IMG/VR virus record: IMGVR_UViG_3300028581_000059
Span: 1-50,657 of that record
Reading direction: 5' to 3' (one strand)
DNA: 50,657 bases
Source: a virus
Lineage: Duplodnaviria; Caudoviricetes
Position numbers and translations under genes: made by a program. Under the pieces are notes generated by a model. It saw only the letters and a program-made list of their open reading frames with translations. It made no database searches and was not told the origin of the DNA. Shown piece by piece: positions 30,905-33,313 of the stretch. The stretch's first letter is position 1. Each line of letters begins with the position of its first letter.

Positions 30905-30924
30905 CTTTTTTGTTTCTCTAAATG

Positions 30925-30982
30925 TGACACAATATGTAATAAGCTGTTTTTTTTTGAACATATTAGTTACATATCGTGTAAT
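30925..30982 (+). promoter_or_regulatory. Right operators and rightward promoter
   Basis: tgacacaatatgtaa at 30925-30939; ttacatatcgtgtaa at 30967-30981 overlapping TTGAAC-N17-TGTAAT. Confidence 0.6.
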
Positions 30983-30995
30983 CAAGAGGCCGCCC

Positions 30996-31277
30996 ATGAA
31001 CCACCACGCCACACCGACCATCGCCCGAATCAGGATTAGGATCGCAATCGTAACCATCCTGCTCCTTATCGGGTACATATTCTGTTTGTGGCTGCTTACC
31101 TGCACCGTGCCGCCGGTTATTACTGTTAGCAGATTTACGGGTACAGAGTACACGCCTGCTTACCACGGCGCTGACCTGCTGGAGATCAGCCCGGACGGCA
31201 GCATGACGGCGTTTAAGTGGGACAAAAAGAAGTGGACCTATAAAGTCATGTGGAAGCGGAAAGGTGGAAGGGTATGA
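30996..31277 (+). CDS. Membrane protein
   Basis: GAGG RBS; one long transmembrane segment. Confidence 0.5.
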   Translation: MNHHATPTIARIRIRIAIVTILLLIGYIFCLWLLTCTVPPVITVSRFTGTEYTPAYHGADLLEISPDGSMTAFKWDKKKWTYKVMWKRKGGRV

Positions 31278-31339
31278 TTCTGACCGGCGACTGCCTTGAA
31301 ATCATGCCGACGCTGGACGGTGAATCGAGGTTAGTGTGA
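31274..31339 (+). pseudogene. N-terminal remnant of an N6A/N4C DNA methyltransferase
   Basis: MILTGDCLEIMPTLDGES then stop, before the expected DPPY motif. Confidence 0.6.
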
Positions 31340-32496
31340 ATGAACTATCCCTCTTTTCAGGTGCGGGTGGCGGCCTCCTCGGAACAATGCTCCTTGGCTT
31401 CACCCCCATCGGATATGTTGAATGGGATGACTACTGCCAACGAGTCATTGCCGCAAGAATCCGTGACGGAATCCTGCCCGACGCCCCAATTTTCGGTGAT
31501 ATCAAAACATTCATCTGTGAAGGGTACGCCGCAAGCTATCAGGGAATGGTTGATGTCATCACGGCGGGCTTCCCCTGCCAACCCTTTTCTGTCGCCGGAA
31601 AGCAGAAACAGGCCGGCGACGAAAGAAACCAATGGCCGGCGACAAGCGACGTTATTTCCATTGTCCGGCCAGGATTCGTTCTGCTTGAAAATGTGCCGGG
31701 AATCCGCCGCTACCTGCCCGTGGTCATCCGAGACTTGCGCCGACTTGGGTATGACGTTCGACGACCCCTCCAGCTTGGGGCTGACGATTGCGGAGCCCCG
31801 CACAGACGGAAACGGGTATGGATTATGGCCGACCTGTGTGTCGAACGAAGGCAGGAACAGACGTCTTCCAGATGGGAAGCGCGGGTGGGGCTTGGAATCG
31901 GCCGTCAGAATTTGGCCGACGCCACAAGCGGAGAATTTCAGAAGCCGAGGCGGAAGACGGAAGGGAGAAATGGGCCTGGACAGAGCCGTGAAGTTATGGC
32001 CCACGCCGAAAGCCCAACGCCCCGATCAGGACACGACCTACGCAAGAGGAAATCCAACGCTTGCGAGAGCGGTGAATCGATCAATATGGCCCACGCCGAA
32101 AGGAACACCGTCCGGCCCGGACTTTGCCCGGATGAATCGGAAAGGATCAGGCGGGGACGATTTGGCGACGGCGGTTGCGAAATGGCCGACACCCGCTGCA
32201 ACGGACGGGCAGAGAGGCGGCAGGATGACTTTGAATATGACGGGGCAAAGCCTGACGCAGATGGTGAACAGTTTCCCGACACCAAAGAGTCGGGATTGGA
32301 AAGGCAAGTCACAAAGGGGGACACATGCACCGATGGATGCCTTGTGCAACAAGCTGGATGTGACTGGTGGACAACTGAACCCGACGTGGGTCGAGTGGCT
32401 AATGGGGTGGCCTCTCGGGTGGACCGACTTAAAGCCCTTGGCAATGGACAAGTTCCAAGAGTGGTTGCGACAGCATGGAAAATTTTGACGGGATGA
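31336..32496 (+). CDS. C5-cytosine DNA methyltransferase, catalytic chain
   Basis: LFSGAGG (I), GFPCQPFS (IV), LENVPG (VI), HRRKRVW (VIII), LKALGNGQV (X); no motif IX in this frame. Confidence 0.92.
   Translation: MNELSLFSGAGGGLLGTMLLGFTPIGYVEWDDYCQRVIAARIRDGILPDAPIFGDIKTFICEGYAASYQGMVDVITAGFPCQPFSVAGKQKQAGDERNQWPATSDVISIVRPGFVLLENVPGIRRYLPVVIRDLRRLGYDVRRPLQLGADDCGAPHRRKRVWIMADLCVERRQEQTSSRWEARVGLGIGRQNLADATSGEFQKPRRKTEGRNGPGQSREVMAHAESPTPRSGHDLRKRKSNACESGESINMAHAERNTVRPGLCPDESERIRRGRFGDGGCEMADTRCNGRAERRQDDFEYDGAKPDADGEQFPDTKESGLERQVTKGDTCTDGCLVQQAGCDWWTTEPDVGRVANGVASRVDRLKALGNGQVPRVVATAWKILTG
31340..32488 (+). CDS. Alternative-frame methyltransferase chain: six WPTP modules plus motif IX
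   Basis: 382 codons open in the +1 frame; LNPTWVEWLMGWPLGWT is motif IX-like; true start uncertain. Confidence 0.75.
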   Translation: MNYPSFQVRVAASSEQCSLASPPSDMLNGMTTANESLPQESVTESCPTPQFSVISKHSSVKGTPQAIREWLMSSRRASPANPFLSPESRNRPATKETNGRRQATLFPLSGQDSFCLKMCRESAATCPWSSETCADLGMTFDDPSSLGLTIAEPRTDGNGYGLWPTCVSNEGRNRRLPDGKRGWGLESAVRIWPTPQAENFRSRGGRRKGEMGLDRAVKLWPTPKAQRPDQDTTYARGNPTLARAVNRSIWPTPKGTPSGPDFARMNRKGSGGDDLATAVAKWPTPAATDGQRGGRMTLNMTGQSLTQMVNSFPTPKSRDWKGKSQRGTHAPMDALCNKLDVTGGQLNPTWVEWLMGWPLGWTDLKPLAMDKFQEWLRQHGKF

Positions 32497-32552
32497 AGCG
32501 CATTGACGCGGCCCGGTTGCCGCTGCTGGAGACGGTGGAATAAGGAAAAACC

Positions 32553-32858
32553 ATGAAATGCTCCTGCGGAAATGAAGTCACCCGACCTCATGGGCGCCTG
32601 TGCGAGACGTGCCGAAAAGAGCACCAGGGTCACGGCAAGGGCAGGACCGGCGGTCGGCCCCTTGGCGTGAGGGACAAAAGGCAAAGAAAGCCCCTGGCGG
32701 TTGTGACTGGGGTTTCGATCCCATGCCTGTGTTGCGGAAGGGTTTTTTTAAGCACCCACAAGGGAAACCGGATGTGTTCCCGCTGCGCGAACGCCCAAGA
32801 GAACATAATCGATCAGGGCAGGGAATCCCGGCAGGGAGCGCATGGAGGGGGAGAATGA
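32553..32858 (+). CDS. Cys-rich hypothetical protein
   Basis: AAGGA RBS; several CxxC pairs. Confidence 0.55.
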   Translation: MKCSCGNEVTRPHGRLCETCRKEHQGHGKGRTGGRPLGVRDKRQRKPLAVVTGVSIPCLCCGRVFLSTHKGNRMCSRCANAQENIIDQGRESRQGAHGGGE

Positions 32859-33313
32859 AACATGAAATGACGGTCAGGATTCCCGGAAATCCTATTGCTA
32901 AAAAGCGGCCACGATTTGTCAGGCGGGGAAAGTTTGTCGGCACATATAACTGTCAAGACACAGAGGAGGGGAAATTCAAGTGGGAACTGCTGGCGCAAAA
33001 AAAGGACATGCCTATTATAGAATCGGCTATCCATTTGACGTGCCGTTTTTTCATGCCTATTCCCGCCAGTATATCAAAAAAGAAACGTGCGCTATACGTT
33101 GGCTGTGCTGTTCCTCATATAAAAAAGCCCGACCTCGATAACCTTATCAAATTCGTTAAAGATTGCGCGAATGGGGTCTTGTGGCGGGACGATTCGCAAG
33201 TTAACTCATTGACCGCATCAAAGGCATATCACCCTCAACCAGGAACGGAAATTAGATTGGAGTGGGATCAGCGCGAAACGGACGACATCATCATCGAGGA
33301 GTGTGGCCTATGA
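32855..33313 (+). CDS. rusA: RusA-family Holliday junction resolvase
   Basis: PIAKKRPR, KPDLDNLIKFVKD, WRDDSQV. Confidence 0.9.
   Translation: MKHEMTVRIPGNPIAKKRPRFVRRGKFVGTYNCQDTEEGKFKWELLAQKKDMPIIESAIHLTCRFFMPIPASISKKKRALYVGCAVPHIKKPDLDNLIKFVKDCANGVLWRDDSQVNSLTASKAYHPQPGTEIRLEWDQRETDDIIIEECGL

Follow-up and report, generated by a model that had tools for sequence, protein, structure and literature searches.

The virus record IMGVR_UViG_3300028581_000059 (Duplodnaviria; Caudoviricetes), found in lake-water and freshwater metagenome runs and analysed here over its whole length of 50657 bases (the window), carries at positions 31336-32496 what is very probably an orphan C5 methyltransferase of a phage. 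The enzyme would consist of two polypeptides read from one messenger RNA (mRNA) in two frames, in the manner of M.EcoHK31I, with the recognition region in the second polypeptide. We refer to the open reading frame (ORF) in frame 0 as alpha, to the ORF in the +1 frame as beta, and to the +2 frame as the third frame. An earlier note, made from the sequence without database searches, had described two same-strand ORFs of 386 and 382 aa with almost complete overlap. We confirmed both, at 31336-32496 and 31340-32488; beta lies wholly inside alpha, one base off register. The note had overlooked that the second frame is kept open from an ATG 4 nt downstream of the alpha start, and that beta is not conserved as protein over its first ~120 residues. 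The locus is a real and strongly selected case of dual coding, in which the starts are twinned and the module array of beta is unusually long. The two frames, which share about 1.15 kb, most likely yield the catalytic and the DNA-recognition half of one enzyme. Such a layout has been proven once, for M.EcoHK31I, and is common in phages; the recognition half consists here of six exchangeable modules of ~30 residues.

Motifs and selection in two frames

Alpha matched PF00145 over residues 2-165 (E 6.1e-31) and phrog_363 over its whole length (1.4e-53), and was itself matched by 7340 of the 8000 scored candidates at E<=1e-3. A single domain of alpha contains FSGAGGG, GFPCQ, ENV and HRRKR, which we take to be the S-adenosylmethionine (AdoMet)-binding motif I, the catalytic Pro-Cys motif IV, and motifs VI and VIII, the set that marks a C5 methyltransferase. 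Motifs IX and X both fall outside the PF00145 match in the window. Our own profiles and the alignment with a single-chain enzyme located motif IX in beta and motif X in alpha, the latter with a profile match in frame 0 at E 9e-24. The motif IX-like LNPTWVEWLMGWP stands at the place in frame 2 where the earlier note had read it (Table 1). Beta matched phrog_1008, annotated as 'DNA methyltransferase' (2.7e-24), and no Pfam family; 5506 of the 8000 scored candidates matched it, and the family is large, with 14597 cluster representatives matching beta at E<=1e-3 and 3957 at 1e-10.

The single-chain enzyme is P0241 (Mycobacteroides prophiT49-1 gp22), which has motifs I-VIII, four LLPTP modules, motif IX and motif X in one frame. 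Residues 5-165 of alpha correspond to residues 9-185 of P0241 (E 1e-17), the modules and motif IX of beta to 236-429 (E 1e-16, 32% identity, including the M4-type GPDxAR..R.GSGGDDL), and alpha 345-383 to 414-454 (E 0.06). Motif IX of beta aligns with the FSEWMQGWPLGW stretch of P0241. We favour the two-subunit reading because P0241 is matched in order by alpha, beta and again alpha. In the AlphaFold2 (AF2) model of P0241, the predicted local distance difference test (pLDDT) score exceeds 90 for the N domain and for residues 380-450, and residues 2-460 of the model superpose on residues 10-326 of M.HhaI (Z 23.4; root-mean-square deviation 3.4; 251 aligned). The ordered match together with this superposition indicates that the two frames of the window share the parts of an ordinary C5 enzyme. 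The assignment of motifs I-VIII and X to the first frame, which had been proposed from the letters alone, is thereby supported by PF00145, the motif X profile and the P0241 alignment.

The division of motifs is conserved among related viral loci. Nine loci were retrieved with the alpha sequence alone, and a second set of 80 through an alpha alignment, with motifs IV and VIII as search patterns, as the best 80 of 581 relatives among 586 stretches. Three annotated phage records brought the number to 92, and hence to 93 sources for the census with the window, for which we built profiles for the N domain and for motifs IX and X. The layout of the window, with motif IX in the +1 frame and motif X in frame 0, was found in 73 of the 93 sources, which bears out both the motif split and the likeness to M.EcoHK31I claimed in the earlier note. 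In the 62 sources whose motifs IV and VIII were recognised by simple regular expressions, the +1 frame stayed open over 195-541 codons, compared with only 9-135 in the +2 frame.

The starts of the two ORFs are often twinned. Of 78 loci, 45 have as their first beta start an ATG placed exactly 4 nt past that of alpha (NTGAATGAR); in these, alpha begins with ATG (26 loci), GTG (14) or TTG (5) and beta always with ATG. The use of GTG or TTG for alpha in 19 of the 45, next to a constant beta ATG, could set the subunit ratio. Among alpha starts that read M-N-E, 46 use AAT for Asn and one uses AAC, a bias that reflects selection for the +1 ATG. Purine-rich boxes occur in related loci at a place equivalent to the Shine-Dalgarno-like GAGG of the window.

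We assessed the openness of the frames by synonymous-codon shuffles of one frame, which give the number of stops expected in the other. When beta was shuffled over the 174-codon module region of the window, 6.2 stops were expected in the alpha frame and none is present, a value reached in 0 of 200 shuffles; the third frame has 8 stops against 7.7 expected. Across related loci, 70 of 71 have no alpha-frame stop in the module region, where 3.0 would be expected, and the third frame contains 5.08 stops against 4.55. For the catalytic domain, 53 of 78 loci lack any +1-frame stop between codon 3 and the domain end, where 2.4 +/- 1.5 such loci would be expected; stops in the +2 frame show no depletion (8.68 observed, 7.42 expected). 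The overlap of the two frames is not due to chance, and both are kept stop-free. Synonymous sites should be saturated at the 30-60% protein identity of these relatives, so that the open frames would not simply be inherited.

Similarity is distributed unequally between the frames. The median bit scores of the window against 72 loci were 135 for alpha, 23.3 for beta and 24.8 for the third frame in the catalytic domain. In the module region they were 30.8 for beta, 17.3 for alpha and 14.8 for the third frame, with beta exceeding alpha in 60 of the 72 loci and the alpha linker at an unconserved level. Both beta (64) and alpha (54) show conservation in the last 43 codons, where the third frame scores 39. 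Therefore, alpha appears to be read for the N domain and the C-terminus, and beta for the middle and the C-terminus. Upstream of the modules, it is only over the ~45 codons nearest to module 1 that beta exceeds the third frame, as seen for codons 121-166 (0.41 and 1.27 for beta against -0.49 and 0.45 for the third frame).

The C-terminus of alpha shares its DNA with motif IX and the tail of beta, and this doubly coded segment (32368-32476) was the only part of a 3-kb query that matched other phages as DNA, with 87% identity to Salmonella phages S9-5 and ABTNLsp11242. Many contigs of other, unrelated organisms pile up there in lake metagenomes. The segment is an island of conservation at the DNA level, made by the two-frame constraint.

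These features suggest a model in which one mRNA read in two frames would yield both polypeptides. Alpha would provide the AdoMet-binding and catalytic motifs I-VIII, followed by a linker indifferent to sequence and then by the motif X helix. Translation of beta would begin at the ATG 4 nt past the alpha start, from the same Shine-Dalgarno site, with a leader of ~120 residues whose sole requirement would be the lack of a stop, and beta would then supply the variable (target-recognition) region of six WPTP-anchored modules and motif IX. By analogy with the experiments on M.EcoHK31I, alpha and beta would bind each other and assemble into one enzyme of the usual C5 fold, in which the modules may contribute to sequence recognition. 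Change in the array would come from whole modules being gained, lost or reordered at the short anchors that code for WPTP. Twin starts 4 nt apart, combined with an open leader that is indifferent to sequence, offer a testable model for the synthesis of two subunits at a fixed ratio.

The module array of beta

The six W/F-P-T modules of 28-32 aa start exactly where the earlier note had placed them, and the L-x-x-x-V type ends that it described are seen in each module as an L-x-x-(A/M)-V-like stretch. The anchors read WPTC at 31826, WPTP at 31913, 31997, 32087 and 32183, and FPTP at 32273. At the DNA level, the window (50.6 kb) has four occurrences of TGGCCSACNCC, each of them marking the start of a module; 0.21 would be expected. 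The anchors at 31826, 31913 and 32183 read TGGCCG, which fits YGGCCR, the site given for M.EcoHK31I in the papers on that enzyme; this may be a coincidence.

The sets of modules differ among close relatives. Behind another first module, P0002 contains M2-M4-M5-M6, P0003 contains M2-M4-M6 and P0004 contains M4-M6. M3 is absent from all three, and M2 is joined directly to M4 in P0002 and P0003. Among 209 beta proteins, both the M4-M5 and the M5-M4 orders exist. M3 of the window is bracketed by the two copies of an exact 18-nt direct repeat, and recombination between them would excise it without shifting either frame. Every module comprises complete codons, which is why gain or loss of a module leaves both frames open. 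A count of anchors, a check proposed in the earlier note, gave 0 to 7 per protein among 163 beta proteins, most often 3; only 5 of them reach 6 or more. Together, the stop tests, the module sets of the relatives and the repeat around M3 agree with the idea put forward there, that cassettes shuffle at conserved TGGCC(G/C)AC anchors while both frames remain open, and the compared sequences support gain, loss and reordering of modules at the anchors as the likely mode of change.

What the modules do is a separate matter. One proposal is that beta is a specificity subunit built of cassettes, each WPTP module being a small recognition unit able to dock on alpha, and that swaps, gains and losses at the 11-18-nt anchors re-target or multiply the methylated sequences. 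We regard this as unlikely. If it holds, the complete overlap and the twinned starts would ensure that both subunits are made in equal amounts from a single ribosome-binding site, and the locus would represent a natural, recombination-driven switch of specificity for a C5 methyltransferase, written in two frames.

We are still more doubtful of a two-subunit enzyme in which each WPTP module is an independent target-recognising domain, making beta multispecific and quickly re-targetable, which is how the earlier note had read the array. The multispecific C5 methyltransferases of Bacillus phages (SPR, phi3T, rho11, SPbeta, H2) contain tandem short units between motifs VIII and IX, and tandem domains that can be removed individually are the hallmark of these enzymes, which we counted in favour of this proposal. 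The presence or absence of whole modules among close relatives, their differing orders and their variable number would suit it as well, the window belonging to the class with at least six. However, the link to the Bacillus phage enzymes drawn in the earlier note was not supported: the best match of beta to the SPbeta enzyme had an E of 0.29 with 24% identity over 66 aa, and module types of beta are also present in ordinary actinophage methyltransferases. The modules are 28-32 aa long and predicted to be disordered, both in beta alone and in residues 197-351 of P0241. M4-type and M6-type modules are very widely shared, from lake phages to actinophages and in single-chain as well as split enzymes, and structural or backbone-binding repeats would fit at least as well. 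Among the papers listed in our literature searches, none gave specificity data for a family member and none described the methyltransferase family or its WPTP/LLPTP modules. The role of the modules as separate specificity domains is not supported.

Possible expression of the two frames and surroundings of the locus

Could the two frames yield a single polypeptide? By programmed ribosomal frameshifting or transcriptional slippage, alpha would be read to motif VIII, the +1 frame for the modules and motif IX, and the original frame again for motif X, and the order of parts would then equal that of the single-chain enzymes; a few database proteins (P0055, P0165) do change frame. We consider this very improbable, as two shifts would be needed. 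Neither the alpha linker open in 70 of 71 loci nor the +1 frame open from the alpha start in 53 of 78, with its conserved ATG, is required by a shift near motif VIII. P0055 and P0165 change frame at differing places, after motif IV or inside the array, as random indels would, and we rejected them as natural single-chain fusions for this position of their frame switches. Contigs from three other lake or freshwater runs cover parts of the stretch without indel variants, on the level of DNA only. The accessible portion of the GeneTack frameshift paper (PMC3711429) mentions no DNA C5 methyltransferase cluster.

That frame 2 might be an untranslated shadow ORF, with alpha alone as the enzyme or as an inactive remnant, is barely credible: beta lacks a Pfam family, folds poorly alone and has an unconserved leader, but it is the conserved frame in the module region, where alpha is not, motif IX occurs nowhere else, beta has the homologue of the variable region of single-chain enzymes, stops are depleted far beyond expectation, and in some phages the same protein is encoded by a separate, non-nested gene.

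Several points weigh against the two-subunit enzyme with recognition in beta. Twenty of the 93 sources have another layout: motifs IX and X both in the +1 frame in five (L016, L018, L027, L035, L039), motif IX in +1 without X in five, neither motif in four, IX in +0 with X in +2 in three, IX in +2 with X in +1 in two, and X only in one. The sample of loci is neither independent nor unbiased, since L001-L003 were selected for matches in both frames, L013-L092 were kept as the top 80 of 581 after ranking by similarity to full-length alpha, and two pairs of census rows are identical (L005 and L006; L089 and L092). The first beta start lies more than 30 nt downstream in 27 of 78 loci, and elsewhere in another six. 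For a real part of a protein, the similarity of the beta leader, at the level of the third frame, is odd. The AF2 model of beta alone has a mean pLDDT of 50.9, with confidence only for the motif IX helix and the C-terminal helix, and is for that reason unfit for a fold search; no fold is assignable to the modules either, because the module region of P0241 (197-351) is below 50 pLDDT in its model. Among the sequencing runs holding the stretch, no RNA runs were seen. Finally, the target-recognition domain of M.EcoHK31I is placed in alpha, according to PMC2836561 and PMC3404938, whereas the variable region lies in beta here, a comparison made by description only.

In five sources with aberrant layouts (L028, L079, L080, L049, L084), motif X is out of phase, one base behind motif IX, as from a single upstream indel. 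These sources and the proteins P0055 and P0165 have one extra frame change and are either pseudogenes or the product of assembly indels. From such out-of-phase copies, gene callers yield chimeric 'fused' proteins.

The methyltransferase gene is placed in the rightward early region of a temperate phage (Table 1). A comparison of 22 neighbouring ORFs with PHROGs recognised no cognate restriction enzyme; as PHROGs is not a restriction-enzyme library, we only infer a role as an orphan enzyme that evades host restriction, through which it may protect the phage DNA. A 21-codon ORF in the beta frame directly upstream has an ATG overlapping the stop of the upstream ORF 30924-31277 and a TGA overlapping the GTG of alpha. 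It had no Pfam match and no counterpart among the 92 related loci, and its peptide seems to resemble the N-terminal part of N6/N4 DNA methyltransferases, as the remnant of a replaced gene would. Downstream, a 16-codon ORF (32493-32543), whose ATG overlaps the alpha stop (ATGA), precedes the next gene at 32553.

Table 1. Features of the methyltransferase locus and its neighbourhood (window coordinates; module counts refer to 209 beta proteins).
Feature	Position	Strand	Remarks
Integrase	24073-25197	-	neighbourhood
21-codon upstream ORF, beta frame	31274-31339	+	context; not shown to belong to the locus
Shine-Dalgarno-like GAGG	31327-31330	+	5 nt before alpha GTG, 9 nt before beta ATG
Alpha ORF	31336-32496	+	GTG start, 386 aa; motifs I-VIII, linker, motif X
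Alpha catalytic domain	31336-31833	+	PF00145; matches single-chain enzyme P0241 residues 9-185
FSGAGGG	31354-31374	+	alpha catalytic domain
GFPCQPFS	31567-31590	+	alpha catalytic domain
ENV	31687-31695	+	alpha catalytic domain
GAPHRRKRVWI	31792-31824	+	alpha catalytic domain
Alpha linker, residues 167-343	31834-32364	+	low complexity, unconserved, variable length, kept open
Alpha C-terminus with motif X	32365-32493	+	LGNGQVP; G369-N370 at 32440-32445
Beta ORF	31340-32488	+	ATG start, 382 aa, +1 frame; leader, module array, motif IX
Beta leader, ~120 residues	31340-31699	+	kept stop-free, unconserved as protein
Beta pre-module segment	31700-31825	+	some conservation of its own
M1 (WPTC...)	31826-31912	+	29 aa; matched in 6/209
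M2	31913-31996	+	28 aa; 5/209; present in P0002 and P0003
M3	31997-32086	+	30 aa; 1/209; absent from closest relatives
18-nt exact direct repeat, left copy	31995-32012	+	family D1; brackets M3
18-nt exact direct repeat, right copy	32085-32102	+	90 nt from left copy
M4 (GPDFARMNRKGSGGDDLATAV)	32087-32182	+	32 aa; most widespread type, 58/209
M5	32183-32272	+	30 aa; 14/209; before or after M4 in other proteins
M6 (FPTP...) and run-up to motif IX	32273-32374	+	module 29 aa; 26/209
Motif IX in beta, LNPTWVEWLMGWPLGWT	32375-32425	+	motif IX profile, +1 frame, E 2e-18
RusA-like resolvase	within 32600-33310		neighbourhood; endonuclease VII and HNH genes further on

Significance and comparison with known systems

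To our knowledge, few same-strand overlaps in prokaryotes and phages exceed 1 kb and have a clear function, and such cases are disputed. The logic of the present overlap is plain, with two halves of one enzyme, and its statistical support is strong. The best 120 beta matches listed are mostly nameless, with a few called 'hypothetical protein', and the +1 ORF is unannotated in two of the three phage records examined. If the second frame is dropped, the annotation presents an incomplete enzyme as a complete methyltransferase. With the modular recognition array, phages may have a route to changed methylation specificity, and C5 enzymes that are split in nature have also served as platforms for targeted methylation (PMC2836561).

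The single-chain C5 methyltransferases of actinobacterial prophages (P0241/P0244) have the same catalytic domain, LLPTP modules and motifs IX and X as the locus described here, but keep all parts in one frame and have an extra well-folded segment before motif IX (pLDDT >77 from residue 370). The nested layout is shared by Paenibacillus larvae phages such as Tadhana (TADHANA_54/55, MG727700), in which both nested coding sequences are annotated as DNA-cytosine methyltransferase, with about 28% identity. The Tadhana array has three modules, and its beta starts 202 nt inside alpha, where the upstream +1 frame has 5 stops against 7.6 expected. The overlap is not discussed in the accessible portion of the Paenibacillus phage genome paper (PMC6070908).

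Separate subunits are natural in this family, as Tadhana and the Mycobacterium phage GaugeLDP illustrate. In the latter, the adjacent genes 82 (motifs I-VIII) and 81 (modules, IX, X) encode a catalytic and a recognition half as separate polypeptides, as in M.AquI-type enzymes, and gp81 carries motif IX and LLPTP modules, among them the M4 type. Unlike in the window, the two genes are not nested but adjacent with an 8-nt overlap, and motif X accompanies motif IX in the second subunit. This M.AquI-type arrangement, with non-nested genes and both motifs in the second subunit, is not that of the window, where motif X is in the alpha frame. It is present in GaugeLDP and in L016, L018, L027, L035 and L039, whose +1 ORF with modules, IX and X overlaps all or most of a short alpha; in the three of these that were scored, alpha stops 18-39 codons past motif VIII. 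Motifs IX and X share one frame in 30 of the top 120 beta-like database proteins. The multispecific enzymes of Bacillus phages differ from the locus in being single polypeptides, and no sequence similarity between them and beta was found.

The alpha/beta C5 methyltransferase M.EcoHK31I was reportedly described by Lee, Kam and Shaw in 1995. A plasmid search with beta matched 11 records, none of them named EcoHK31I. In E. coli HK31, whose enzyme recognises YGGCCR, beta lies wholly within the alpha gene in another frame and both polypeptides are needed for activity, as given in PMC2836561 and PMC3404938. The phage locus resembles this system in two respects, with a second polypeptide nested in the first gene in another frame, and with motifs I-VIII and X in alpha and motif IX in beta. 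It differs in the extent of beta, which begins 4 nt behind the alpha start and covers the entire gene, and in being a phage orphan with no cognate nuclease identified.

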